A stretch of DNA of 64,000 nucleotides from an uncultured Verrucomicrobiae bacterium (GCA_963818965.1 CAWFUG010000010.1:1-64000); one strand, 5' to 3'. Counted from the first letter of the stretch, positions 12,941 to 59,857 are shown. Notes: generated from the letters alone by a model not told the origin. Translations and numbers: made by a program.

Positions 12941-13122
12941 GAGGTTATTTTCGAGGATCGATATATATCGATCCTCGAAAATAACCAGCATTTCAGCTGC
13001 GTCAAAGCCGCCGAGATTCGACGATCGTAAGTTGGGTTGTATTGCATTATACTACCCAACTTACGATCGTCGATCTCGGCGCTTTCACGCGCTGAAATAC
13101 AGGTTATTTTCGAGGATCGTAA
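12941..13122. mobile_element. Palindromic MITE-like element (about 12964-13122) plus adjoining terminal remnant of a second copy (12943-12965)
   Basis: tatatcgatcctcgaaaataacc...ggttattttcgaggatcgta; core gctgcgtcaaagc/gctttcacgcgc; central gtattgcattatac; overlaps rnc 3' end. Confidence 0.75.
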
Positions 13123-13825
13123 TCCCCAAACGCTTCAAGGCATCTTCTGCCGCTGTCTGTTCCGCTTCCTTCTTGGAAGCCCCCGTTCCCTCTCCCGCCT
13201 CAGCCTCTCCAATCGCGACGGCGACCTGAAAGACTTTGCTATGGTCTGGTCCCATCTCTTTGATGATTTTATAAATCGGCGGTTTTTGGTATTTTTTCTG
13301 AGAATAGTCTTGCAATTCTGCTTTCCAATTGCGCAACGGCTCCTTCAAATAATCCTGAATCTTATTTTCAAAGTGCCTCAGCAGGAATTTGCGTGCGGCC
13401 TCTATTCCCCCATCCAAATAGATCGCTCCGATCAGAGCTTCGAAAAGATCTGCCAAAATCGTCTCTCGCCCGCGTCCATCGTTCATCCGCTCGCCTCGCC
13501 CCAACAAAATGAATTGAGCGATATCGAGCTGATTGAGCAGTGTGGCACAAGTGCTCGCATCGACCAAGTGTGAGCGCAAACTCGAAAGATGCCCTTCCGG
13601 CTCTTGCGGGAGCTGGATATAGAGATATTCTGAAATCAATATCCCCAAGACAGAGTCCCCTAAGAACTCCAATCGCTCATTGTGATGCTCCACGACCTCT
13701 CGATGCTCATTATAAAAAGAGCGATGGACAAATGCGATGGCAAGGAGTTGCCTATCTTGGAAAATATAACAAAGCCGCTCCTCGATGGAGCTTGCGTGTA
13801 AAATCAACTGTTGAAAAGGGTTCAT
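13085..13825 (-). CDS. rnc: Ribonuclease III
   Basis: NERLEFLGDSVL, ADLFEALIGAIYLD, dsRBD with GASKKEAEQ. Confidence 0.98.
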   Translation of the reverse strand: MNPFQQLILHASSIEERLCYIFQDRQLLAIAFVHRSFYNEHREVVEHHNERLEFLGDSVLGILISEYLYIQLPQEPEGHLSSLRSHLVDASTCATLLNQLDIAQFILLGRGERMNDGRGRETILADLFEALIGAIYLDGGIEAARKFLLRHFENKIQDYLKEPLRNWKAELQDYSQKKYQKPPIYKIIKEMGPDHSKVFQVAVAIGEAEAGEGTGASKKEAEQTAAEDALKRLGITILENNLYFSA

Positions 13826-13985: not shown

Positions 13986-14669
13986 ATGCATTTCGCAATC
14001 AACTCCGACCACAAATCTTTTTTTCAAAAAAATCAATTCATTGAATTTGAAGAAATCTTCAGCTTAGAGCAACTCCACTCTCTGAAAAACACCATCGAAT
14101 TGACACTCCGTAAACGGATGCAGATGTCCTCCTCTCAGCTTAAGGCCACAACTGGGATCGATCTCTTCCGAGAAGGCTATGATTTATGGCGAGATAGTGA
14201 AAGTTTTCGAAAAATGACGCAAAAGCAAACCCTTTTAAATGTGGCAGCTGAGCTGTTTGACAAGTGGGAATTGCGCATCGCCTTCGACCAATACTTCTCA
14301 ACAGCAGGCTCGCAACGCTCCCCCCTAGAAAAGTCGTTTTCCCTACAGGAGATCTCTAGCTTAAAACCTCTGGCCGGCGCCTTCCTCATCCAGCTTAAAA
14401 GTTTAGAAGAGCCATTCGAAGCCTTTCCCCTTCCTCTCAAAGCGGGAAATGTCCTCTTTTTTTCCCCTGAACTCACTATCCCCTGGCCCCAACTATTTGG
14501 AACACCAGGTCTTTGCTTTCAAATCGTCGTCTTTGCTGAAGAGAAGACCATCTTCCAACATGGGACAATAGATCCTTATGCCCCTCAACTGAAAAAGCTC
14601 GGCTACGCCTTCGGCGACCATCTCCAAAATTCGCTCCATCCCCTAATATTAAGACGCAATCCAGCTTAG
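13986..14669 (+). CDS. Conserved chlamydial hypothetical protein (CT296-like position)
   Basis: 227-aa ORF divergent from rnc; FIEFEEIF and DLWR segments; family assignment is recollection, not a search result. Confidence 0.55.
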   Translation: MHFAINSDHKSFFQKNQFIEFEEIFSLEQLHSLKNTIELTLRKRMQMSSSQLKATTGIDLFREGYDLWRDSESFRKMTQKQTLLNVAAELFDKWELRIAFDQYFSTAGSQRSPLEKSFSLQEISSLKPLAGAFLIQLKSLEEPFEAFPLPLKAGNVLFFSPELTIPWPQLFGTPGLCFQIVVFAEEKTIFQHGTIDPYAPQLKKLGYAFGDHLQNSLHPLILRRNPA

Positions 14670-14802
14670 AGATTGTAGACAGACTCTTAGAACCTCCAGA
14701 AAATAAAATATTAAATTAAAATTAGTTTTACATTTCTTTTTTAATGAATTTATTATATAATTTAATTAAAGCTCAAGCTTTTATAAAACCAGGAATAAAA
14801 TT

Positions 14803-15801
14803 ATGCATTCTATACTTCCTCGCTCGATAAAAACTCCCTTCCCCCCTGAGTATGCGCTTCCCGTGCTGCTCGAAACGGGACATCTCCCCGCGATCTCTGA
14901 TCAACGCGCTTTAAGACTTGTCAACAAACAGTGGTGCGATCTAACCACAAAGACGATCGAATTCATGGATACGATTCGAGTAGGAACCGTTCGAGAATTT
15001 TTAATGATTTTTCAAAAGCAATTAGATGGAAATTTCCATGCAGAGGAAATTACACAGATTACAGCTTTGGGTCAAACCCTAGAAGAACGACGGGATAATC
15101 AGCCTCTCTTTGGACCCAGATGGCATGAGGCCATTATTGAAACCACCTTAAAAATTTCACTCAGTGCACTCGGAAAGACTCCATTCCGTTTCGCTGAGTT
15201 CAATATCGCTCCACATAGAGAAACTATACCCCGCCCGGTCAGGAATTGCGAATTTGAGCTGCGTGAAAGCTCCCGCGATTCCACGATCGAAAAGGGGGCC
15301 AGTATTGAGGAAATACAGGCCCCCTTTTCGATCGTGGAATCCCGGGGCTTTGACGCGCTCAAATTCGCAATTCCTGACCGGGCGGGGTATAGATTAATAA
15401 GAATTCCGATTTTCCCTCATCACTTATCTTGTCCTCAATCAGAATTCAAGAAAGTCTATTCCCAAATATGGAACGTAGCGACAGCGCCTGCAGATACTCT
15501 TTCTGAAATAAGTTTCCACACTATAGATAAATTAGAAGCCCTTGCCACAATAGGACATTTCAGAATCGCTCGAGTTGCAGTGCAGAGTTTTTTAGTAAGA
15601 CATAGAGAAAAACACGCTTCGTTAAATACTTTTTCCCTTGAAAAACGCCTCCTCATGACCATATCCTATCAAATGCATTCTAAAGGCGATGCCCAAGGAG
15701 CGCGTCAGATCCTTCTCAACTTCAACGCAATGCTCGCTGAGCAAGAAGAGTATCTCCGAAACGCTTACATTCCTTTGAAGCATTTCGATTCTCTTGCCTA
15801 G
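14803..15801 (+). CDS. Hypothetical protein with F-box-like N-terminus and an in-frame palindromic insertion
   Basis: AT-rich upstream region, AGGA RBS; FPPEYALPVL...LRLVNKQW resembles an F-box; 55 codons derive from the palindrome. Confidence 0.7.
   Translation: MHSILPRSIKTPFPPEYALPVLLETGHLPAISDQRALRLVNKQWCDLTTKTIEFMDTIRVGTVREFLMIFQKQLDGNFHAEEITQITALGQTLEERRDNQPLFGPRWHEAIIETTLKISLSALGKTPFRFAEFNIAPHRETIPRPVRNCEFELRESSRDSTIEKGASIEEIQAPFSIVESRGFDALKFAIPDRAGYRLIRIPIFPHHLSCPQSEFKKVYSQIWNVATAPADTLSEISFHTIDKLEALATIGHFRIARVAVQSFLVRHREKHASLNTFSLEKRLLMTISYQMHSKGDAQGARQILLNFNAMLAEQEEYLRNAYIPLKHFDSLA
15224..15392. mobile_element. 169-bp palindromic MITE/RPE-like element within a CDS
   Basis: ctataccccgcccggtcaggaattgcgaatttgagc...gctcaaattcgcaattcctgaccgggcggggtatag; same terminal family as 33738-33815. 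Confidence 0.88.
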
Positions 15802-15808
15802 GGCACAC

Positions 15809-17170
15809 TCAGTGCATTGAAACACTGCACTCCAGCGCCACCTCTTTTGCCAGTTGGATGCAGTGATCGACACTGACGCCGATGAGATAGTTTCCAACGA
15901 GGTGGCACCAAGGCATCTTTTCTCGACATAGCTGTCTTACAGCATGCATTTTTTCCAAATGACCGACCCTGTACTGAGGAATCGCTTCAGCAGCGCGCTT
16001 GAACGAGATCTCTTTGGGAAGAGCTGAAACACCTAATTGACGGCGGATCCCCTCTTGCGCCGCCTGTCGGTAAAATGCTTCCTCCTTTCCCGTCTCCTTC
16101 AATAAAATCGTGAGACGAGTTTCTTCCTCTCTCCGATTGTTTTTGGGAAAGAGGGAAGAATCGAAGATGCACCCCAAGACATCTTCCCGTTCAGAGGAAG
16201 GGATGAGATAACCAAAACCCTCTTGATTTAAGACCTTGGCATCATAGCCGCAATTGACGACGGTTAGCCCCACACAGGGCACTTGAGAGAGTTCTTTAGA
16301 GACAGAAGGGATGAACTTTTCCAATAAAGCCCCCGTGACGTGAACCGGTAAAGCACATAAGAGTATATCGGCAAAAAAGATCCCGCGATCCGTCGTGACC
16401 TTCACTTCTCCCCCTTCATAATCGATCGCCTTGACCTCTTGGCCATAATGGATTTGAGCTGGGATTTGATAGAGAAGCGATTGAGTGAGCATCTCCATTC
16501 CCCCGCGCAAAGAAAACAGTGCAGAAAGAGGAAGATCAGGAATTTCCGCTGAGAAGGGAGAGCGTTTTTTCTTCTCACGCGCGGTTTGAAAAAATCCCTT
16601 TGTGACAGATCCTGCTTGTTCTTCCCACTCTTTTAATTTAGGAAAACAAGCCTTGATCGAGATCTGCCTTGGATCTCCGCCGAAGATTCCGACCACCATT
16701 GGATCGAATAAAAGGCGCGCCACATCTCCATTAAAACGGCGCGCGACGAATTCCCAAACGCTCTCATCCCCTTTTTTGGCTGGTTTTCGCCATTCTGAAA
16801 GCAGTGCTGGGATTACCCCCTTAGTGATCGGAGAGAAGAAAAGGGAAAGAGGGTGTCTGGGCAAACGGTGGAGTTTTTGATCAGACCAGATGTAACGATC
16901 GGATGCTTCGGGAGAAGAACAGTGTATTTCTGCTTGCAAACCCAGCTCCTTGATCAATTGAATCAGAGCCGGCGACCGATCCACCTTAAAACTGCGCGGC
17001 CCCTTCTCAAAATGAAAACCAGTTGTTTGGTCCGTATCCATCCACCCACCGACTCGGTCCGTTTTCTCTACAATTGCAATCTCCAAAGGAAGTGAGGAGC
17101 GGCCTAAATACCAAGCCGCAGAAAGACCTGAGATCCCTCCTCCCAAAATAAGCACGCGTTTCTTTTGCAT
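15809..17170 (-). CDS. hemG: Protoporphyrinogen oxidase (HemY-type flavoprotein)
   Basis: GGGISGLSAA, FEKGPRSF, GFGYLIP, AIPQYRVGH. Confidence 0.95.
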   Translation of the reverse strand: MQKKRVLILGGGISGLSAAWYLGRSSLPLEIAIVEKTDRVGGWMDTDQTTGFHFEKGPRSFKVDRSPALIQLIKELGLQAEIHCSSPEASDRYIWSDQKLHRLPRHPLSLFFSPITKGVIPALLSEWRKPAKKGDESVWEFVARRFNGDVARLLFDPMVVGIFGGDPRQISIKACFPKLKEWEEQAGSVTKGFFQTAREKKKRSPFSAEIPDLPLSALFSLRGGMEMLTQSLLYQIPAQIHYGQEVKAIDYEGGEVKVTTDRGIFFADILLCALPVHVTGALLEKFIPSVSKELSQVPCVGLTVVNCGYDAKVLNQEGFGYLIPSSEREDVLGCIFDSSLFPKNNRREEETRLTILLKETGKEEAFYRQAAQEGIRRQLGVSALPKEISFKRAAEAIPQYRVGHLEKMHAVRQLCREKMPWCHLVGNYLIGVSVDHCIQLAKEVALECSVSMH

Positions 17171-23068: not shown

Positions 23069-26047
23069 GTGTCGCTATTACATCACTTGAATTTAGACCC
23101 TACCTGTCGCCTAGACCAATACCTATCCCATGAAATTCTGCATCCCGAAGCAGCCGGGGACCCTCTTGTCGGATTTCACTTAGTAGAAGAATCTAAAAAA
23201 TTATTCGAATCCGCCACTAAAAAACTGAAAAGCACACTTTCCCTCCACAGCCTTATACCAGATCCTTTTTTGCATACCCTCTCCTACCTGACTCCTGTAG
23301 ACAGGAAAATTGCCCGTCTCGTCTGCCGCCACTGGAATAAAAGCTTAGAGCGAATCGCTCTCGAGGAAAAAAATGCTGAAATAATGAAGCACTTCGAACC
23401 CTTAAGAAAAACGTTAGGGCTTTTGAGAGAGCATTTTTCTGTTCATCCCCCCATCACTCCTATGTGCAACGGATTTATCGCTCAATTTTTAAGGGATATC
23501 TTGCCCGATAGAAAAGATGTGCGGTCTGTAGATGAAGTAAAGAGGCTAGAGGATAAGGCCCAATCAGAGATCGGGAACTTGTTACTCCTATTGGACGAAG
23601 AAGAACTCGCGGCTTTTTTACAATTTTCAAACTTCAGCAGAGACAGCCATTTAGCGAACTTGTTAGATTTCATCATAAAATGTGTACCTCTCTATAGAGA
23701 AGAAGAAAATGCCAGCGATGATATCCACTCTCTTCGCACTCTCGTGGATTGCCACCCTGCTTTTCCACTAGATGATCAGGATGAGATAGTAAAAGAACTA
23801 CAGAGGAGGATAGAGAAAGAGGCCAAAGAGGATAATCCCCTGCGCGCTGCCCAGTTGGCGATATTATATTCTGAAATACTGCCCCAAAAAACCTCTACCC
23901 AAGTGGACTTCTTAGAAGCCCTGAGCTGGCTATTAATCAAGAGGGGCTTTTTCATTCCTGGCAGGCAAATTGCGACGCTCTCGATTCAAGCGCGCCCTAA
24001 CTATTCCTTCCGTACCTGTCAGATCGCACAGAAGATCCAAGCTGAGGCACTAAAAGAGACCCAAAACGGCAATCCAACCCAAGCGGTCCAATGGGCCACA
24101 TTATATTTTCAAATACCGCCTCAGAAGGACGCTACCAAAGCAGCCCACTTAGCAACGATGAACTGGATATTAATCGACAGAGGGTTTTTCGTTCAGGCGA
24201 TGCAAATGATGACACTCTGCATTCAAGCCTACTCTGATCCCTTAGTCAAGGTGCGGGCGATCATGGGGCTCCACAAAAAATTATCAACACATCGAGGAGC
24301 AAAGGCTACGGCGGAACAGCTCTCCCAAGTTCCTGAATTCTATTGCAGAACAGTTATTGAATCAGAAAAACAGGAGTGGGGTCTGCGCACCTGTTTGACA
24401 ATCGCACAAGAATGTATCCTCATGGGACAAGACAATCATGTTTTTGCAAAAAGCCAAGAGGCTCTTTACTCGATTGGCCTTCGGTTAATCGATTTGATGG
24501 CGACAGATGCTTTAGGGATTTATAAAATGGATCCACTGACTCCTAACATAGACTTGAAATTTCCTCCAAAAACAGTAGAGATTTTTAAAAAGATAGGCTG
24601 CGCATTTGTTGAGAAAGGTTTTTTTAATGAAGCTGTCGACATCGCTGTCATCTGTGCTAAAACGGTTGTTAAAAGCGTACAGAAGACGCAAGCAATACGA
24701 GAAATCGGTGCAGCATTGATCAAAAAACAAGGAGCTTCTGAACAAGTCCTTCAAATCACTGAGATCTGTTGCAAAATGGCCACCAAGGCCGATGTGGAAG
24801 ATTGGATGCAAGCCCTCTTTGATATGATCTCTATAGCAGATAAGGCAGGAAATTCCGCTCTTGCAAGTGATATAGTGACTCAAGCGTTGACCCTTAGCTT
24901 ATCTGGGAGAAATTTTGAAGGAAAAACAAAGGTCCTGTTTAACCTGTTAAAGCACCTTGCAGCGTGCCATATACTGGACGGCAATTTCGTCGAAGCACGG
25001 CACTATTTTGAGAGCCTGCGGCCTATTGCAGATACGAGAACACAGATCCAAGTGCTCAAAGATTTAGTGGAAACACACATTACAAGTGCTTCCTTCCAGG
25101 ATGAAGAAATCGAGAACTACTCTCCTGAAAAGGCATACGCGCTGTTTCGGCAACAACTTCCCACCCTTCTAGAACAACTCTATGAAAATACTCAGGATTT
25201 TGAAGACTTTTACTCCAAGGATGTCTTTTACTTCTTCCCCCTTCTTTTTGAAATGGAAGAAATGGGACTAGCCCAGGAACTGATGGAAAGAGCCCTCATT
25301 ATTGTTCATCAAAAACACACAGAAGACGAACTATTTTTGGATGAGATTTTTAATAATGAGTTCTTTTCTCTCCTTTGCCAGATGGGAAAGGAGGAACGGG
25401 CCAGAGAATTGATGGATCTAGTCATTGCGACTCTTCACAAGAATTATCCTAAGGGTGAAAAATTTTGTAATGAGCTCTTTAAGCGAGACATCTTCTCCCA
25501 CCTTTGTAAAATGGGAGATTTGGGACAGGCCAGAAAATTGATGGATCAAGTCGTTGCAATCCTTCGTCAGAAACACCCTGAAGACACAAAATTTTTTAAT
25601 CAGCTCTTTGAGCAAAAGATCTTCTCCCACCTTTTTGAGATGAGAGATTTGGTGCGAGCCCAAGAATTAATGCAGCAAGCCCTTACAACTTTCCGTCAAA
25701 AATACCCAAGAGACGACAAGTTTTTCGAAGCGCTCATTAAGCAGGGTGTTTTTGTACAGCTTTGCGAAATAGGAGATACCGCTGAAGCGATCCGTCTGTT
25801 TAAAACAATGCCTACAAATTTTGCTCCAAGAGCCGTGCATAAGCATAACAACGGTCTAAAATCTATAGCATACGAGTTAATGGAAGCTGTCGATCAAACA
25901 GGGGGAGCTGGTGAAGAGCCCTTGCATAGAATCTTAGAGATTTGGGAAATGCTCATTAACGATCCAGACAAAACAAGATTAATAGAACTAGTAGGAAGCT
26001 GGAGATATACCGAACGTGACTCAAGAATCGGGATTGGGCCGATGTGA
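23069..26047 (+). CDS. F-box-like / helical-repeat protein, paralog 1 (putative secreted effector)
   Basis: IPDPFLHTLSYLTPVDRKIARLVCRHWN is F-box-like; duplicated ~78-aa module; about 4 copies of a 43-aa repeat. Confidence 0.8.
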   Translation: MSLLHHLNLDPTCRLDQYLSHEILHPEAAGDPLVGFHLVEESKKLFESATKKLKSTLSLHSLIPDPFLHTLSYLTPVDRKIARLVCRHWNKSLERIALEEKNAEIMKHFEPLRKTLGLLREHFSVHPPITPMCNGFIAQFLRDILPDRKDVRSVDEVKRLEDKAQSEIGNLLLLLDEEELAAFLQFSNFSRDSHLANLLDFIIKCVPLYREEENASDDIHSLRTLVDCHPAFPLDDQDEIVKELQRRIEKEAKEDNPLRAAQLAILYSEILPQKTSTQVDFLEALSWLLIKRGFFIPGRQIATLSIQARPNYSFRTCQIAQKIQAEALKETQNGNPTQAVQWATLYFQIPPQKDATKAAHLATMNWILIDRGFFVQAMQMMTLCIQAYSDPLVKVRAIMGLHKKLSTHRGAKATAEQLSQVPEFYCRTVIESEKQEWGLRTCLTIAQECILMGQDNHVFAKSQEALYSIGLRLIDLMATDALGIYKMDPLTPNIDLKFPPKTVEIFKKIGCAFVEKGFFNEAVDIAVICAKTVVKSVQKTQAIREIGAALIKKQGASEQVLQITEICCKMATKADVEDWMQALFDMISIADKAGNSALASDIVTQALTLSLSGRNFEGKTKVLFNLLKHLAACHILDGNFVEARHYFESLRPIADTRTQIQVLKDLVETHITSASFQDEEIENYSPEKAYALFRQQLPTLLEQLYENTQDFEDFYSKDVFYFFPLLFEMEEMGLAQELMERALIIVHQKHTEDELFLDEIFNNEFFSLLCQMGKEERARELMDLVIATLHKNYPKGEKFCNELFKRDIFSHLCKMGDLGQARKLMDQVVAILRQKHPEDTKFFNQLFEQKIFSHLFEMRDLVRAQELMQQALTTFRQKYPRDDKFFEALIKQGVFVQLCEIGDTAEAIRLFKTMPTNFAPRAVHKHNNGLKSIAYELMEAVDQTGGAGEEPLHRILEIWEMLINDPDKTRLIELVGSWRYTERDSRIGIGPM

Positions 26048-26482: not shown

Positions 26483-29400
26483 GTGTCCATATTAAATCAC
26501 TTAAATTCAGAACCAAACTATTCTGTATACCAAAACCTATCTCGCCACATCCTATCCTACTTGGATCAAGACTCCCAAAGAGCGGTGGCCTGTGCCGGCA
26601 GTGGATTGAACCAACTCGCCACACTCCACTTGGCAGAAGATGTTAAAGAATTATTTTACACTACCATTAAAGCACTGAGAAAAAAAACCGCCTCCCATGA
26701 ACACAGATCCGATACTTTTTTGCATATTCTCTCCTTTCTGAATTCTCTAGATAGGAGAATTGCCCACTGCGTCTCCCATCACTGGAATCACAGCTTGGAT
26801 CGGTTAGCGCTCGAGGAAAAAAACACTGAAATCCGTAAGCACTTCGAACCTTTAAGAAAAACGGTGGGGCTTTTGGAAGAGCATTTTTCGCTTCACCTCA
26901 ACATCTCTCCTGAGCGTAAGGCGTTTATCGCTGCGACTTTAAAGGACCTCTTGCCGAGCAGAAAAGACGTGAAAGATGTTGCTGACGTAAAGGCGCTTGA
27001 ATACTTCGCGCAATTAGGTATCACGAACTTATTGCGATCATTGGACGAAAAAGAGCTCGCGGCTTTTTTACAATTTTCAGACTTCAGCAGGGATAACGAT
27101 TTAGCGAAATTTTTAGATCTCATCATAAAATGCGCACCTCTCTATGGAGAAGATGGAAGTGCCAGGGATGATAGCGGCTCTCTTCTGGCTATCTTGGACT
27201 GCGATCCTTATTTTCCACTGGATGGTTTTTCTCCGATAACACAGGAGATACAAGATAGGGCAGAGAAAGAGGCCCGAGAAGGCGATCCCGTCCGAGCTGT
27301 CCAGTTGGCCACAGTATATTCTGAAATGCTGTCCGAGAATTACTTTATCAGGGCAAACCGATTGGCAACGATGAGCTGGTTATTAATCGAGAGGGGGAAG
27401 TTCGTCCCTGGTATGCAAATTGCGACACTCTGCGTTCAAGCAGTCCCCGAACACTTAGTGAATTATTGGAATCCCATAGAACGGAAAATACAAGAGGGGG
27501 CAGAGAAAGCGGCCCGAGAGGGCAATCCCAACCAAACTGTCTGGTTGGCTACATTATATTCTGAAATAACGCCTAAGGTTGACTATACCGGGACCAAGGG
27601 AAACCACTTGGCAACGATAAGCTTTCTATTAATCGAGAGGGGATTTTTCGATGCTGGCATGCAAATTATAACACTCGGCATTCAAGCGACCCCTAACCAC
27701 TTACTCAAAGTGCGCACGATTGAGGACTTCTATATTTCATTGGCACAGCAAGGAGGAACGGAGGAACAACTCTCCCAAGTCACTAAATTCTATTGCAGAA
27801 CAGTAATTGAAGCAGAGAAAAATGGGTGGAGTCTGGATGATTGTTTGCACATCGCAAGAGCGTGTGAGCGCATGGCGATTTGGTCCGGGGCCTTTGTAGA
27901 AAGGGAAGAGGCTCTTTGGTCGATTGGCGTTGGGTTAATCCAGCAGTTTGACATTTTTAGAACGGACCCACTGGATCCTTACAGCTCCTTTGAACTTGAT
28001 CCAACAACAGCGAAAATTTTTCAGACAATTGGCTGTGTATTTGTTGAGAAAGGTTTTTTCAATGAAGCTGTCGACATCAGTGTAATCTGCGCTAAAACGG
28101 TTTTTAAAGGCCCAGAGAAGGCGCAAGCAATAGGAGGGTTGGGTAACGTATTAGTGAAACAAGGAGCTTCTGAACACGTCCTTCAAATCGCTGAGATCTG
28201 TTGCAAAATGGCCACCGCAGCCGATCTGCAAGATTATCTTGAAGCCCTCTGCGATATGATCCTTATGGCAGATGATAAAGGGAATCCCGCTCTCGGCAGA
28301 GATATCGCTCATCAAGCGTTGACCCTCTCATTGAAGAAAAGTGAGCAGGAACCTCTGTTCAACACCTTAGAGAGCCTTGCATTTCGCCATTTGAGAAACG
28401 GCAATTTTCAGGAAGCGCTCCACTATTTTGAGAGCCTGTGTCCTCTTGCAGATACGAGAGAACAGATTAAGAGCCTGAAGGATTTAGTAGAAGCCTATCC
28501 CAACAACCCTCCGCCTGAAAAAGTATACGCATTTTTGCGGCAAGAGCTGCCTGTTTTTTTGGAACAACTCTATGGAGACGATCGGGCTTTTGAAGAATTT
28601 TACTCCGCAGACGTCTTCTCCCTCTTCCCCCTCCTTCTTGAAATGGGAGAAATGGGACTAGCCCAGGAATTGATGGAAAGAGCCCTCATTATTGTTCATC
28701 AAAAACATACAGAAGACGAACTATTTTTGAATGAGATTTTTGATAATAAATTCTTTTTACTCCTTTGTCGCATGGGAAATGTGGAACGGGCCAGGGAATT
28801 AATGGATCTAGTCATTGCGATTCTTCGCAAGAACTACCCTGAGGACGAAAATTTTTGCTCTCAGATCTTTCGGCGAGACATCTTCTTCCACCTTTGTAAC
28901 ATGAGAGATGTAGGACGGGCTAGGGAGTTAATGGGCCAAGTCCTTACGATGCTTCGTCTGCAATATCCTAAGGATACAAAATTTTGCTCTCAGATCTTTC
29001 GGCGAGACATCTTCTCCCACCTTTGTAACATGAGAGATGTAGGACGGGCTAGGGAGTTAATGGGCCAAGTCCTTACGATGCTTCGTCTGCAATATCCTAA
29101 GGATACAAAATTTTGCGATCAGATCTTTAGGTGCAACATCTTCTCCCACCTTTGTAACATGAGAGATGTAGGACGGGCCAGAGAATTAATGGATCAAGTG
29201 ATCGCGATTTTTCGTGAGAAATACCCTGAGGACAGAAAGTTTTTTAGTCAGCTCTTTGAACGGAAGATCTTCTCCCACCTTTGTAAAATGGGAGATTTGG
29301 TACGAGCACAGGAATTGATGAATCAAGTCATTACAACTCTCCGTCAAAAACATCCGAAAGACAACGAATTTTTCGCAGCGCTTGTTAATCAGGGCGTTTT

Positions 29401-30594: not shown

Positions 30595-33417
30595 ATGTCC
30601 ACATTAAACCATTTAAATTCAGATCCAAACTACTCTGTATATCAAAATCTATCTCGCTACATCCTATCCCACTTGGATCAAGACTCCCAAAGAGCGGTGG
30701 CCTGTGCCGGCAGTGGATTAAACCAACTCGCCACACTCCACTTGGCAGAGAATGTTAAAGAATTATTTTACGCTGTCATTAAAAAACTGGGAAAAAACCC
30801 CTCCTCCCATGAGCACAGATCCGATACTTTTTTGCATATTCTCTCCTTTCTGAGTTCTCTAGATAGGAGAATTGCCCACTGCGTCTCCCGCCACTGGAAT
30901 CACAGCTTGGATCGGTTAGCTCTCGAGGAAAAAAACGCTGAAATCAGTGAGCACTTCGAACCTTTAAGAAAAACGGTGGGGCTTTTGGAAGAGCATTTTT
31001 CGCTTCACCCCAACATCTCTCCTGAGCGTAAGGCGTTTATCGCTGCGACTTTAAAGGATCTTTTGCCGAGCAGAAAAGACGTGAAAGATGTAGCTGATGT
31101 AAAGAAGCTTGAATACCCCACGCAATTATCTATGACGAACTTATTGCGATCATTGGACGAAAAAGAGCTCGCGGCTTTTCTACAATTTTCAGACTTCAGC
31201 AGGGATAACGATTTAGCGAAATTTTTAGATCTCATCATCAAATGCGTACCTCTCTATCGAGAAGGGAGAGCTACTGGGGATGATATCGGCTCTCTTCGCG
31301 CTATCTTGGACTGCCGTCCTTATTTTCCACTGAATGATTATTCTCCGATAACACAGGAGATACAAGATAGGGCAGAGAAAGAGGCCCGAGAAGGCGATCC
31401 CGTCCGAGCTGTCCAGTTGGCCACAGTATATTCTGAAATGCTGTCCGAGAATTACTTTATCAGGGCAAACCGATTGGCAACGATGAGCTGGTTATTAATC
31501 GAGAGGGGGAGGTTCGTCCCTGGTATGCAAATTGCGACACTCTGCGTTCAAGCAGTCCCTAAGCACCTATCATGGAATCCGATAGCAGAGAAGCTACAAG
31601 GTGAGGCAGAGAAAGCGGCCCGAGAGGGCAATCCCAACCAAACTGTCTGGTTGGCTACATTATATTCTGAAATAACGCCTAAGGTTGACTATACCGAGAC
31701 CAAGGGAAACCACTTGGGAACGATAAGCTTTCTATTAATCGAGAGGGGATTTTTCGATGCTGGCATGCAAATTATAACACTCGGCGTTCAAGCGATCCCT
31801 AACCACTTACTCAAAGTGCGCACGATTGAGGGCTTCTATATTTTATTGGCACAGCAAGGAGGAACGGAGGAACAACTCAGACAGGTTGAAGACTTCTATT
31901 GCAAAACCGTCATTGAAGCAGAAAAAAATGAGTGGAGCCTGGATGATTGTTTGAAAATCGCAGACAGGTGCTATGGGTACTCCGGAAGCGAAGAGGCTCT
32001 TTTGGCGGTTAGCATTAGATTAGTCAACTGCATCAGGTCAGATAATCCCAGCATTTATAAAATGGCTCCACTGCCTACTTCTGTAGGACCAGTGCTTTTT
32101 AAAAAAATGGTCGAGGCACTTGTTGACAAAGGTTTTTTCAATGAAGCTGTCGACATCGCTGTCATCTGTGCTAAAACGCATTTTGGAGCCTACTGGATAA
32201 AAGCAAACATAATACGAGATATCGGTAAGACATTAATAAGAAAACAAGGAGCTTCTGAACAAGTCCTTCAAATCGCTGAGATCTGTTGCAAAATGACCTC
32301 CGAGGCCAATCTGCAAAATTATCCTGAAGCCCTCTGTGATATGATCCTTATGGCAGATGATGAAGGGAATCCCGCTCTTGGGAGAGATATCGCTCTTGAA
32401 CCGTTGACCCTCAACTCATGGAAGAAAAGCGAGCTGCAAGCTCTGTTCAACATCTTAGAGCGCCTTGCATTTCGCCATATGAGAAACGGCAATTTTCAGG
32501 AAGCGCTCCACTATTTTGAGAGCCTGCGTCCTCTTGCAGATACGAGAAAACAGATTGAGAGCCTGAAGGATTTAGTAGAAGCCTATCCCAACAACCCTCC
32601 GCCTGAAAAAGTATACGCATTTTTGCGGCAAGAGCTGCCTGTTCTTTTGGAACAACTCTATGGAGACGATCGGGCTTTTGAAGAATTTTACTCCGCAGAC
32701 GTCTTCTCCCTCTTCCCCCTCCTTCTTGAAATGGGAGAAATGGGACTAGCCCAGGAATTGATGGAAAGAGCTCTCATTATTGTTCATCAAAAACATACAG
32801 AAGACGAACTATTTTTGAATGAGATTTTGTTTTTTGATGATAGATTTTTTTCGCTCCTTTGTCGCATGGGAAATGTGGAACGGGCCAGGGAATTAATGGA
32901 TCTAGTCATTGCGATTCTTCGCAAGAACTACCCTGAGGACGAAAATTTTTGCTCTCAGATCTTTCGGCGAGACATCTTCTTCCGCCTTTGTAAAATGGGA
33001 GATTTGGTACGGGCTAGGGAGTTAATGGGCCAAGTCCTTACGATGCTTCGTCTGCAATATCCTAAGGATACAAAATTTTGTAATCAAATCTTTGATAAAA
33101 ACATCTTCTATCACCTTTTTAACATGAGAGATTTGGAACAGGCCAGAGAATTAATGGATCAAGTGATTGCGATTCTTCGTCAGAAATATCCTGAGGACAG
33201 AAAATTTTTTAGACAGATCCTTAAGCATAATACCTGCTCCACTCTTTCTAACATGGGGAATTTGGTACAAGCACGGGAATTAATGAACCAAGCTATTACA
33301 ACTCTCCGTCAAAAACATCCAAAAGACAACAAATTTTTCGCAGCGCTTATTCAGCAAGAAGTTTTTGTACAGCTTTGCGGAATCGGGGCTGTCGATAAAG
33401 CTATCCAGCCTCTTTGA
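30595..33417 (+). CDS. F-box-like / helical-repeat protein, paralog 3 (C-terminus frameshifted; homology continues to 33682)
   Basis: Long stretches identical to paralog 2; about 5 copies of the 43-aa repeat; +1 C near 33410 causes an early TGA. Confidence 0.78.
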   Translation: MSTLNHLNSDPNYSVYQNLSRYILSHLDQDSQRAVACAGSGLNQLATLHLAENVKELFYAVIKKLGKNPSSHEHRSDTFLHILSFLSSLDRRIAHCVSRHWNHSLDRLALEEKNAEISEHFEPLRKTVGLLEEHFSLHPNISPERKAFIAATLKDLLPSRKDVKDVADVKKLEYPTQLSMTNLLRSLDEKELAAFLQFSDFSRDNDLAKFLDLIIKCVPLYREGRATGDDIGSLRAILDCRPYFPLNDYSPITQEIQDRAEKEAREGDPVRAVQLATVYSEMLSENYFIRANRLATMSWLLIERGRFVPGMQIATLCVQAVPKHLSWNPIAEKLQGEAEKAAREGNPNQTVWLATLYSEITPKVDYTETKGNHLGTISFLLIERGFFDAGMQIITLGVQAIPNHLLKVRTIEGFYILLAQQGGTEEQLRQVEDFYCKTVIEAEKNEWSLDDCLKIADRCYGYSGSEEALLAVSIRLVNCIRSDNPSIYKMAPLPTSVGPVLFKKMVEALVDKGFFNEAVDIAVICAKTHFGAYWIKANIIRDIGKTLIRKQGASEQVLQIAEICCKMTSEANLQNYPEALCDMILMADDEGNPALGRDIALEPLTLNSWKKSELQALFNILERLAFRHMRNGNFQEALHYFESLRPLADTRKQIESLKDLVEAYPNNPPPEKVYAFLRQELPVLLEQLYGDDRAFEEFYSADVFSLFPLLLEMGEMGLAQELMERALIIVHQKHTEDELFLNEILFFDDRFFSLLCRMGNVERARELMDLVIAILRKNYPEDENFCSQIFRRDIFFRLCKMGDLVRARELMGQVLTMLRLQYPKDTKFCNQIFDKNIFYHLFNMRDLEQARELMDQVIAILRQKYPEDRKFFRQILKHNTCSTLSNMGNLVQARELMNQAITTLRQKHPKDNKFFAALIQQEVFVQLCGIGAVDKAIQPL

Positions 33418-33695
33418 AACAATGCCAGCAGACTTTGTTCCGGACAGAAGTGTGCAAGCATAATAAAAATCTAAAAGAAGATTGCGCTCGAATTAATGGA
33501 AAACAAGAAATCTGTATCTGAGGAGTCTTAGTATAAAATCTTACAGATTTTAGGAATGCTCATTGAAGATCCAGATAAAAAAAAGTTAATGAAAAAAGTA
33601 CAGCGACTTGGAGAAACGTGTGAAGCCCAAGCTTCGGGGCTGCTCTTCGTCTGACTCTACCTCTTCATCTTCATCTGACTAATATTAAGGGCAAG

Positions 33696-33733
33696 TTTGA
33701 CCGTGGGGCGCTGCGAAAGCTCCCACGGTCAAA
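33696..33733. repeat. 38-bp hairpin after paralog 3
   Basis: Identical to 30072-30109. Confidence 0.75.
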
Positions 33734-33737
33734 TATA

Positions 33738-33815
33738 TATACTGCGCCCGGTTAGGAATTGCGAATTTGAGAGCGTCAAAGCTCAAATTCGCAATTCCTA
33801 ACCGGGCGCAGTATA
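33738..33815. mobile_element. 78-bp TATA-ended palindrome, short relative of the 15224 element
   Basis: tatactgcgcccggttaggaattgcgaatttgag...ctcaaattcgcaattcctaaccgggcgcagtata. Confidence 0.85.
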
Positions 33816-58333: not shown

Positions 58334-59857
58334 ATGTCAATCACTTACAACAACACAAAGAGAACAAGTAGATGCTCTACAGCACCTCTACAGCACCTCT
58401 GCACCAAAGCGGAAAAACAGCGGGACAATTGTCCCAAATTCTGCATGCTCCTCACACAGATCCACCCGCTTTTCGAGGAATTACGGAAAGAAAATCTACC
58501 CGAAAGCGAAGAGATCTCTCAGCTATCTGAGCGAGTCACAAGCTTGCAGCTTGCGACTTTTAACTTGCAGGGGCTGTGTGAAATTCAAGAGATTGCGTTC
58601 TCATTCTTTTCCTACTTGTCGTCTCAAGAGAGAATCCCCGTTCTCTGCGTGAACAAAGACTGGAATGCTGCATTTCAAGAATTTGCAAAAGTGGAGACCC
58701 ACAATACAGTAACAGCGCATCTAGACTGCTTAAAACACAACCTAAATGTATTAGATGCTCACCTAAATAGCTTTCCCGATCGCGAAACCGCCTCCTCCAT
58801 CCGATGCCTTATTCACAATAGCCAAAGGAACCTTCAAAATTTCAACCGTGCGCATTGGTACTCAGAAAATAAATGGAGTGTTTTCGATGTGGAAGATCTT
58901 GAAACGGACATACAAAGTACCCTTGCCAATGCGCTTAAAGCAGTGGAGCCTCAAAACTGCAATGCCCTCCTTTCTTGCATTGAAAAAGACCACCCCTCTG
59001 CTTTTTTCGAATCCTTACGATTCCTTATTCCCCTTTTTAGCGAGTTGGATCAGCCCAATCTTTCAAATGAACGCCTTTATGATATTGTTACAATTTTGAT
59101 CGATTACGAACAATTCGGGAAAGCCTATGAACAAATCCCCCTGATAGATGCAAAATACACCCGTCGAGAGGCAGCCCAGGATCTTATCAGGAACTTGGCC
59201 AGAGTGGGAAGACTTAACAATGCTTTAGAGCTCGCCCAGATATTGCTAACCGATCCTGCAAGGTGGCTCCCTCAAGAAGACGACTCCTTACCAGGTATGT
59301 ATGTTACATGTGTTTCAATTCTATGGCAACAACAACGTTTTAATAAAGCCATTGAAGTGATCTCAATCATCAAACAATATCCCTATCAGCACAACAGAGG
59401 AATTAACACCATAGTTGAAGCGTTAGCCGATAAACACCTCTTTAAAAAAGCCATTGAGACAGCTCTTATGGCCAGTACCCCAGACACCCAGATAACCGTG
59501 CTGTTGAAAATCCTTCCCCTCCAAATCGAATTAAACAAATTTGCAGAAGCTGTAGAAACTGTACTTATTCTGAAAAAATTGATTCTAGAAATCGCAGAAG
59601 ATCCTAAACTAAAAGAAGTAACATCTGAAAAAACTGTCTCATGCGCTGGCTTTATTATGAAAATACCTAGTAAATATTTCAAAGAAAAGGGAACTGATAA
59701 AATGACTCAGCTCTCGATTAATGAACTCCTATCCATCGCAGAAAAAAAGATGCAAATCGGGGAATTTGCCATTGCCACACAAATCTCAAAGCTGATCCCT
59801 GCTAATAATAAAGAAGCTCATGCGCAATTGACAAACTTATTTGAAACATACTTCTAG
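58334..59857 (+). CDS. F-box-like helical protein (putative effector)
   Basis: EIAFSFFSYLSSQERIPVLCVNKDWN followed by TPR-like helices. Confidence 0.72.
   Translation: MSITYNNTKRTSRCSTAPLQHLCTKAEKQRDNCPKFCMLLTQIHPLFEELRKENLPESEEISQLSERVTSLQLATFNLQGLCEIQEIAFSFFSYLSSQERIPVLCVNKDWNAAFQEFAKVETHNTVTAHLDCLKHNLNVLDAHLNSFPDRETASSIRCLIHNSQRNLQNFNRAHWYSENKWSVFDVEDLETDIQSTLANALKAVEPQNCNALLSCIEKDHPSAFFESLRFLIPLFSELDQPNLSNERLYDIVTILIDYEQFGKAYEQIPLIDAKYTRREAAQDLIRNLARVGRLNNALELAQILLTDPARWLPQEDDSLPGMYVTCVSILWQQQRFNKAIEVISIIKQYPYQHNRGINTIVEALADKHLFKKAIETALMASTPDTQITVLLKILPLQIELNKFAEAVETVLILKKLILEIAEDPKLKEVTSEKTVSCAGFIMKIPSKYFKEKGTDKMTQLSINELLSIAEKKMQIGEFAIATQISKLIPANNKEAHAQLTNLFETYF

Follow-up and report, generated by a model that had tools for sequence, protein, structure and literature searches.

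What raises the question at this locus is a palindrome in the middle of an open reading frame (ORF): how did it come to lie there without closing the frame, and does it add protein? The palindrome occupies positions 15226-15390 of a 64,000-nucleotide stretch of DNA (hereafter the window) from an uncultured Verrucomicrobiae bacterium (GCA_963818965.1, CAWFUG010000010.1:1-64000). The window belongs to contig C10 of a 2.24-Mb, 12-contig genome (G000) with a completeness of 87.85%. A sequence-only reading of this stretch had described a 165-bp in-frame insertion adding 55 residues to an F-box-like protein, and had likened it to the creation of new protein sequence by the Rickettsia palindromic elements (RPEs). 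We propose that the segment is very probably a young copy of a non-autonomous, TA-targeting palindromic element, similar to the miniature transposable elements with inverted repeats (MITEs), that was inserted in a lineage-specific and probably accessory ORF.

The near-perfect palindrome begins with A15226 and ends with T15390. The ORF at 14803-15801 (+) is translated across it as ...HRET-IPRPVRNCEFELRESSRDSTIEKGASIEEIQAPFSIVESRGFDALKFAIPDRAGY-RLIR.... With a codon starting at 15220, deletion of the 165 nt leaves GAA ACT AGA TTA, which contains CTAG, with the frame kept; the insertion point is between codons 141 and 142 of the uninserted host reading. The sequence-only reading was right about this architecture, whose arms are 97% and 94% complementary, and both of the further open stretches that it named, 15164-15397 (+) and 15099-15362 (-), are present in the ORF listing. 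The inner module contains a core, GAAAGCTCCCGCG-N6-CGATCG, that is common to copies in other chlamydial genomes. The single strand of 15216-15400 is predicted to adopt one hairpin, at -153.8 kcal/mol (z = -22; none of 200 shuffles equalled it), and a search of 15100-15500 against Rfam at E <= 1 returned nothing but sub-threshold microRNA-precursor noise on that hairpin.

Whichever way it is oriented, the element is free of stop codons in two codon phases out of three. Because of this, and because 165 nt is 3 x 55, the host ORF remains open and encodes 55 extra residues. Four of the six frames are open in this copy. In 20,000 palindrome-preserving shuffles this state recurred at a rate of 2.8%, and an open frame +0 at 14.9%. 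There is thus mild evidence that the stop-free state of this copy is not accidental.

The element is one of many in its genome. A blastn search with it found 88 loci, 28 of them at least 138 bp long (the element itself at 100% and 27 others). A profile made from these 28 long copies, which gives the element a score of 189 bits, detected 107 loci with nhmmer, including 41 of at least 139 bp and 21 of exactly 165 bp. The loci have distinct flanks and graded divergence, and the other long copies range from 72% to 99.4% in DNA identity to the one studied here. Like MITEs, the element is dispersed in multiple copies with different flanks and has terminal inverted repeats (arms of 39 nt, 97%, and 35 nt, 94%); at 165 bp it is well within the size expected of them (below about 800 bp), and it carries no transposase gene of its own, its frames encoding just a 55-residue peptide. 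The nearest copy, C9:363391-363555, is identical at 164 of 165 positions (99.4%) and has unrelated flanks. So close a twin elsewhere makes the insertion at 15226-15390 look recent, and by this measure the copy probably belongs to the family's youngest layer. Several subfamilies differ in their outer arms and have the inner module in common. On C10, nhmmer placed three loci, 12987-13101, 15226-15390 and 33739-33814; the last is the non-coding relative that the sequence-only reading had noticed at 33738, and it proved to be real, a 76-bp short form with the outer arms only.

The flanks point to a preferred target. Among the 23 copies in which both the ATAC and the GTAT end are intact, T...A flanks are present in 20; base composition would predict them in about 7%. 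A T precedes ATAC in 21 of these copies and an A follows GTAT in 22; in 19 the base ahead of the T is a pyrimidine, and in 18 the base following the A is a purine, giving a YTAR context. The net insertion is 165 nt, given that conserved proteins are longer by exactly 55 residues. Two descriptions fit the flanks equally well, a 163-bp element with a duplicated TA and a 165-bp element placed between T and A.

Nine of the 28 long copies lie full-length in the middle of an ORF. We translated the ORFs spanning copies and scanned 20 of these open frames against Pfam. Together with structures from the PDB, which place the copies in AroA and in an RlmD-like methyltransferase, the Pfam matches (MenC, SulP and a leucine-rich repeat (LRR) protein) put in-frame palindromes in protein genes that are unrelated to one another (Table 1). 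In the alignment of AroA with its solved homologue, query residues 230-288 fall against residues 217-220 of the E. coli enzyme, and residues 215-265 of the RlmD-like protein face nothing in 5xj1; outside these segments both proteins can be aligned over their whole length with solved homologues. The comparison with RPEs that the sequence-only reading drew holds in that the segment is a multi-copy palindrome lying in frame in unrelated genes and not ancestral gene sequence; its claim of new protein is taken up below.

How the element can be read through follows from the frames that are open in the 28 long copies: +0 in 20, -1 in 19, -0 in 16, +1 in 13, and 4 apiece for +2 and -2. A copy inserted so that a codon boundary separates T from A, or so that TA fills positions 2-3 of a codon, can consequently stay open in either orientation, and insertion in a TAN codon runs into stops. 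Within genes, the frame used is +0 in seven of the nine mid-ORF copies, -1 in AroA and -0 in the 99.4% twin, so that one DNA element gives three different peptides. The gene caller's own proteins P0002-P0004 and P0006 include the peptide. Partial copies occur in an MsrA-MsrB linker, a DOT1-like methyltransferase and a protein with a queuosine-salvage domain, and several other long copies, counted here as intergenic, are found just upstream of likely start codons. A candidate for a gene-breaking copy, C1:200863-201027, was rejected, as it lies upstream of the Met of what by eye resembles a Lon-type protease and not inside the gene. In the sulP ORF that carries a sister copy (C9:99605-100804, L017), the Sulfate_transp profile matches only to position 236 of 380, and the C-terminal ~60 residues resemble a family motif out of frame, which could be due to a frameshift, a pseudogene or a consensus error.

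The family extends beyond this genome. A peptide search gave matches in 6 of 400 other genomes of the order, belonging to four families, and the DNA at the hits examined forms TATAC...GTATA palindromes with the same inner core, 162-165 bp long where both ends could be placed. Matches to the element's DNA number 2, 13 and 41 in three genomes of the same family. A 29-nt core pattern occurs in at least 117 stretches of species-representative genomes; among the 80 matches listed, most come from records titled Parachlamydiaceae, Waddliaceae, Rhabdochlamydia, Parachlamydiales or Chlamydiae metagenome-assembled genomes (MAGs). In 35 of these 80 loci a clean palindrome of 161-166 bp could be delimited (162 bp in 18), with T...A flanks in 27 of the 35 and frame +0 open in just 4, which makes the stop-free 165-bp form peculiar to the subfamilies of this genome. 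Independent gene calls on other ENA and JGI contigs also contain the peptide (P0005, P0009, P0011 and P0014).

The arms themselves vary in concert. In a set of 57 copies, 22 from this genome and 35 from others, the mean between-copy identity is 0.73 and the self-complementarity per copy is 0.885. In the consensus hairpin 67 pairs are formed, and 96.5% of their cells are canonical, compared with 30-47% in slid controls; of these pairs, 45 have changed on both sides and 10 are invariant. Because alignment and structure were drawn from the same sequences, the paired percentage is somewhat favored, and the double-sided changes are the stronger figure. Judged by these comparisons of DNA, the element is part of a superfamily of palindromes across environmental Chlamydiae whose arms co-vary.

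Some of the listed matches to the core fall in records titled Verrucomicrobiae, Acidobacteria, Alphaproteobacteria or simply bacterium (L038, L046, L051, L058, L079, L084 and others), and one such MAG, a 2.09-Mb chromosome, has 5 hits among the matches listed; these could be mislabelled chlamydial bins, contamination or transfer. A scan of viral contigs with the core pattern gave 3 hits, which were rejected as chance matches in G+C-rich sequence lacking the element's hairpin. P0014, from a 61-kb JGI contig, has 395 residues and the source name 'phosphate acyltransferase', and clusters at 90% identity with P0013, whose N-terminus is an element-like peptide fused to an apparent PlsX start, a gene call inflated in another organism.

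As for the host, the log-odds codon score of the ORF is 0.105 in its N-terminal part and 0.048 in its C-terminal part, and the annotated frame tops all six in both flanks. For reference, 653 ORFs of 300-499 codons have a median of 0.155 and a 5th percentile of 0.041, and wrong frames have their 95th percentile at 0.016. A peat contig of 95% identity, from another sample, differs at two positions inside the ORF, both of them third codon positions (n = 2, weak). The AlphaFold2 model, for which the input alignment covers the insert alone, has a mean predicted local distance difference test (pLDDT) value of 56.8. It predicts helical N- and C-terminal parts, with pLDDT 84-88 in the C-terminal helices, and a mostly unstructured insert, with pLDDT below 50 for residues 155-210, which is a hint only, given that mean.

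The F-box-like label that the sequence-only reading gave to the host protein is plausible but unproven. Every test with hidden Markov models (HMMs) misses the ORF: a Pfam hmmscan at E <= 1 found nothing relevant in it; a six-frame PF12937 search of the genome at E <= 10 marked 40 places, 12 of them over the cut-off, and the host ORF is not among these; and it is not among the 236 rows at E <= 100 of an HMM made from the genome's 12 best F-box domains. Three weak leads favor the label. Residues 12-59 align at 43% identity (pairwise E 2e-7) with the N-terminus of a protein of 603 residues from a metagenome, whose residues 19-58 match PF12937 at 2.9e-10, the homology match with the host having been seeded on an exact 8-mer. 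In the ESM Atlas, the clusters closest to the N-terminal 141 residues are fungal F-box ones, at 0.92 and with few shared features (115-119). The genome, finally, is rich in such domains, with 12 ORFs carrying F-box-like domains over the Pfam cut-off and 28 weaker matches, an abundance that is typical of the eukaryote-like effector expansions in amoeba-associated chlamydiae. Four of the weaker matches are in long ORFs of the window (23270-23344, 26717-26797, 30829-30909 and 58589-58672), and the LRR protein with a sister copy has a sub-threshold F-box match.

Taking these data together, we propose that the element was moved in trans to TA sites by some enzyme. Insertions in a stop-bearing phase, or at intolerant sites of needed genes, would have been purged, and in-frame copies would remain. 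The extra peptide is likely a tolerated linker between two helical parts of the model, probably disordered, and not a functional module, and the host is probably an accessory, possibly F-box-like, protein.

A number of observations weigh against this proposal, and they concern the ends of the element, its movement and its host. The T...A flanks are no proof of duplication, as a 165-bp element between T and A fits them just as well, and four soil or peat runs, which covered just small parts of the window, gave contigs of 110-228 nt, none bridging the insertion, and no empty-site allele. Searches for an enzyme found neither a DDE_3 (IS630) nor a Y1_Tnp domain in this genome, at 87.85% completeness; DDE_3 was not found in five other element-bearing genomes that are 93-99% complete. 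Transposase_1 (mariner, PF01359) was also absent from this genome, a negative that carries little weight because its control was positive in no genome. We found neither a longer element with the same ends nor matching ends 400-4000 bp apart enclosing a transposase. MAGs often lose insertion sequence copies, and the absence of a transposase is for this reason not proven. The host ORF is without a Pfam or NCBIfam family, its C-terminal codon score is weak (about the 5th percentile of the 653 ORFs), and it may not be a working gene. From the syntenic site of the same-genus genome G001 it is absent: there, the orthologue of the upstream 227-residue ORF (orf227) and hemG, whose product is 58% identical, are convergent and directly adjacent, so the host ORF and its AT-rich leader are specific to this lineage. 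The sole relative of a flank found by phmmer, P0008, is a 75-residue ORF on a 22.7-kb ENA contig that is 79% identical to host residues 250-296 (a 47-residue match) and then runs in another frame of the window sequence.

The host ORF could be decaying or spurious and the element an intergenic or pseudogene MITE copy, open by chance and yielding no new protein; we regard this as possible, although unlikely. The ORF's absence from the syntenic site in G001, its lack of a family, its low C-terminal score and the way P0008 leaves the host frame all fit such decay, as does the mean pLDDT of the model. So do the database searches: a word-indexed search of 5.8 billion clustered proteins returned six proteins, the host ORF itself and five sharing the insert alone; phmmer against 1.84 billion representatives gave 10 hits with no full-length homologue, eight matching the insert alone and one being a repetitive 1124-residue protein at 24% identity; and the host flanks have nothing at E <= 1e-4 in the 400 other genomes of the order. 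In a scan of JGI metagenomes the C-terminal part gave 474 pattern matches and no relative, the single locus found with the N-terminal part being an F-box-like protein that was rejected as an orthologue. However, 332 codons stay open over about 1 kb of ~43% G+C, the annotated frame is the best of six in both flanks and above the wrong-frame 95th percentile, an AT-rich spacer with a promoter-like site lies upstream, the N-terminus resembles a true F-box-like domain in a genome with a dozen such ORFs over the cut-off, and the C-terminal helices reach pLDDT 84-88. A different kind of departure, which we consider rather doubtful, would be that the whole hairpin, and not a pair of transposase-binding ends, is the copied unit, through a mechanism that recognises hairpins or cruciforms or through a host enzyme; on the same reading, the stop-free 3n form would have evolved in this lineage and let the element colonise essential genes such as aroA. 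The compensatory changes in the arms (45 of 67 pairs, with 96.5% canonical cells), the 29-nt core that is fixed across families, the lack of DDE_3 in the six carrier genomes searched and the lack of a Y1 or mariner transposase in this one all lead in that direction.

The same covariation suggests that self-complementarity itself is maintained, and a transcript stem of ~80 bp might then be handled at the RNA level, for example by an RNase III cut acting as a post-transcriptional brake, or by removal from the mRNA, instead of being translated. RNase III processes Correia-element hairpins in Neisseria transcripts, and here an RNase III with a double-stranded RNA-binding domain is encoded next door (13088-13825) to a predicted stem of -153.8 kcal/mol. 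We nonetheless find this improbable, because covariation is also expected from a requirement at the DNA level, such as a transposition intermediate, or from arm-to-arm repair, and because AroA and RlmD carry copies yet otherwise look intact, which speaks against strong silencing; RPEs, moreover, are reportedly retained in mRNA, as Ogata et al. are said to have found in 2000. Exaptation of the 55 residues as a functional module, a new loop or interaction surface kept by selection, which would be the new protein sequence of the sequence-only reading taken in its strong sense, is more improbable still. The peptide is conserved, with 13 invariant columns among 13 in-gene sequences, it is read in frame +0 in most mid-ORF copies, and that frame is open in 20 of 28 long copies here against 4 of 35 in other genomes. 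But conservation of this kind is expected from recent common descent of DNA copies that are 72-99% identical to this one, the AroA copy (-1) and the twin (-0) give different peptides, the insert is predicted to be mostly disordered, and the copy is among the youngest, with no orthologous site common to another species. Finally, an assembly or sequencing artefact of the fold-back type can be given practically no credence: a 2.4-kb perfect inverted duplication on C4, bounded by half elements, could be such an artefact, but dozens of copies differ in their flanks and diverge by degrees, many independent records contain MAGs with this same architecture, and the peptide is in independent gene calls on the other ENA and JGI contigs. 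We therefore retain the young, TA-targeting, MITE-like insertion as the best explanation of this locus.

Table 1. Coordinates of the element, its parts, its host and its relatives (window positions unless a contig is named).
Feature	Position	Strand	Remark
Palindromic mobile element, 165 bp, ATAC...GTAT	15226..15390	+	frame +0 = 55 codons, IPRPV...DRAGY
Outer left arm	15221..15259	.	pairs with 15357-15395; 39 nt, 97% complementary
Outer right arm	15357..15395	.	pairs with 15221-15259; 39 nt, 97% complementary
Inner hairpin module	15272..15346	.	arms 15272-15306 / 15312-15346, 35 nt, 94% complementary, 5-nt loop
Left TA	15225..15226	.	flank T + element A; see T...A flank counts in text
Right TA	15390..15391	.	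see T...A flank counts in text
Example peptide from the 55-residue insert			STIEKGASIEEIQAPFSIVESR
Host ORF, 332 codons, lineage-specific	14803..15801	+	codon score tops all six frames on either flank
Promoter-like site TTTACA-18-TATTAT, 10 of 12	14727..14756	+	consensus match only; AT-rich spacer upstream of ORF
Possible divergent F-box-like motif, residues 12-59	14836..14979	+	weak leads for, HMMs negative
Related palindromic element, other outer arms (TATACCAATCCTCGAAAA... type)	12987..13101	.	just beyond rnc 3' end
76-bp short form of element, outer arms only, intergenic	33739..33814	.	found by blastn and nhmmer
Sister copy in EPSP synthase AroA			Pfam match split in two stretches
Sister copy in RlmD/RumA-type methyltransferase			Pfam and 5xj1 alignment
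Sister copy in MenC			placed by Pfam
Sister copy in SulP permease			placed by Pfam; C-terminal part seems out of frame
Sister copy in LRR protein			placed by Pfam
Sister copy in ORF	C2:33948-35285		nothing from Pfam
Copies in three ORFs without family	14803-15801; P0003; C9:362968-363870		first is the host ORF

Around the element and elsewhere in the genome, several further structures were seen. The element at 12987-13101 (TATACCAATCCTCGAAAATAACC... outer arms) overlaps the 3' end of the RNase III gene, and its stem could be that gene's terminator. A short G+C-rich hairpin (gaccgtggg...cccacggtc) at 33694-33730 directly adjoins the 76-bp short element. A further palindromic repeat type, with outer arms ...CCCAAGTGGACTCAAAAGTTGGCC..., occurs, for example, at C2:141479, C3:52745, C7:8611, C8:290768 and C11:165333; at 5 or more places there is near-identity in the 43-bp core and in the 45-bp flanks, and some copies are inside open frames of 548-1044 codons. 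Where window 13986-17170 is compared with G001:C23 (L156), the orf227 orthologue and hemG overlap tail to tail in G001 and an aminotransferase replaces the upstream rnc, so that the neighbourhood of the host ORF is rearranged relative to that genome. The inverted duplication on C4 (C4:10237-12632) was considered as an autonomous element and rejected, being a large inverted duplication without a transposase. Its ends are 56-bp half elements, its outer flanks are mirror images too, and its mirrored ORFs resemble, by eye, genes of the HigA-type antitoxin and Fic/Doc kinds; the structure is perhaps a true giant palindrome, perhaps a fold-back of the assembly. A search for SbcD in this 88%-complete genome had as its sole match C11:295590-295907, at 33 bits where the cut-off is 77.65. 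Were SbcCD genuinely missing, this would help explain the persistence of 165-bp near-perfect palindromes, and is no evidence by itself.

What this copy adds is the youngest member of the family, apparently in a lineage-specific gene; the family adds spread across the phylum, covariation of the arms, and no recognisable transposase found. A hairpin far more perfect than that of RPEs is present even in aroA and in an rRNA methyltransferase gene, which raises the question of how replication, transcription and translation pass through an 80-bp stem inside needed genes, as well as the questions of what moves the element and whether insertions of this sort give rise to new stretches of protein in effector-like genes that evolve fast. 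If the whole hairpin were indeed the copied unit, the element's mobility would depend on a mechanism that has yet to be described in bacterial MITEs. There is also a practical consequence: in chlamydial MAGs the copies make gene calls too long or break them up, and annotators would do well to mask them. Full-text literature searches, supplements lying outside them, returned no description of this element family in Chlamydiae. In the portions of the sources covered here, the Waddlia genome paper counted only repeats longer than 200 bp (PMC2878342), and the 2024 MITE census makes no mention of Chlamydiae (PMC11602168).

Several known systems bear comparison with the chlamydial element. Small mobile repeats with open frames, sometimes within genes, have been described in enterobacteria as RU-1/2/3 and ERIC, going by the relevant part of PMC2759123. 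The likeness, taken from their description, lies in the open frames and the occasional intragenic position; those repeats, however, are mainly intergenic, with few in essential enzymes. The Correia elements of Neisseria and the Stowaway MITEs of Tc1/mariner type come closer. They are small, have terminal inverted repeats with TA at both ends, and are present in many copies; they have no coding capacity for a transposase, and their transcripts form hairpins. Our element resembles them in its small size, terminal inverted repeats, terminal TA, copy number, lack of a transposase gene and predicted transcript hairpin. It differs in that those elements are mostly intergenic, whereas 9 of 28 long copies here are inside ORFs, and in that searches of this genome yielded no IS630/DDE_3 or mariner transposase, and those of the five other carriers no DDE_3. 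The MITE census in PMC11602168 gives a figure of about 90% intergenic.

The closest parallel is in Rickettsia. RPEs are palindromic repeats of ~150 bp in an obligate intracellular bacterium, many of them in frame in unrelated conserved genes; each adds a conserved peptide, and no transposase is associated with them in the passages of PMC10969869 that describe them. Within the bounds of that description, the chlamydial element behaves in the same way: short palindromes lie in frame in unrelated conserved genes, a peptide is added, and no transposase is found. The differences are several. Related loci have Chlamydiae record titles, which puts the element in the chlamydial phylum instead; it is palindromic almost from end to end, much more perfectly so, and has clear T...A flanks; it uses three different frames in genes; and its superfamily spans several chlamydial families, where copies elsewhere are mostly closed in all frames. 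The insert, translated in three readings and compared as peptide rather than with RPE DNA, had no NCBIfam hit at E <= 10 and no Pfam hit, NCBIfam presumably including models of RPE domains. To our knowledge, in-frame colonisation of protein genes by palindromic selfish DNA is a textbook matter only for Rickettsia. The copies described here indicate that the same colonisation occurs in Chlamydiae, a second, unrelated group of obligate intracellular bacteria, and that the behaviour of the element, as far as it can be read from its genomic positions, is RPE-like and of a kind already known.

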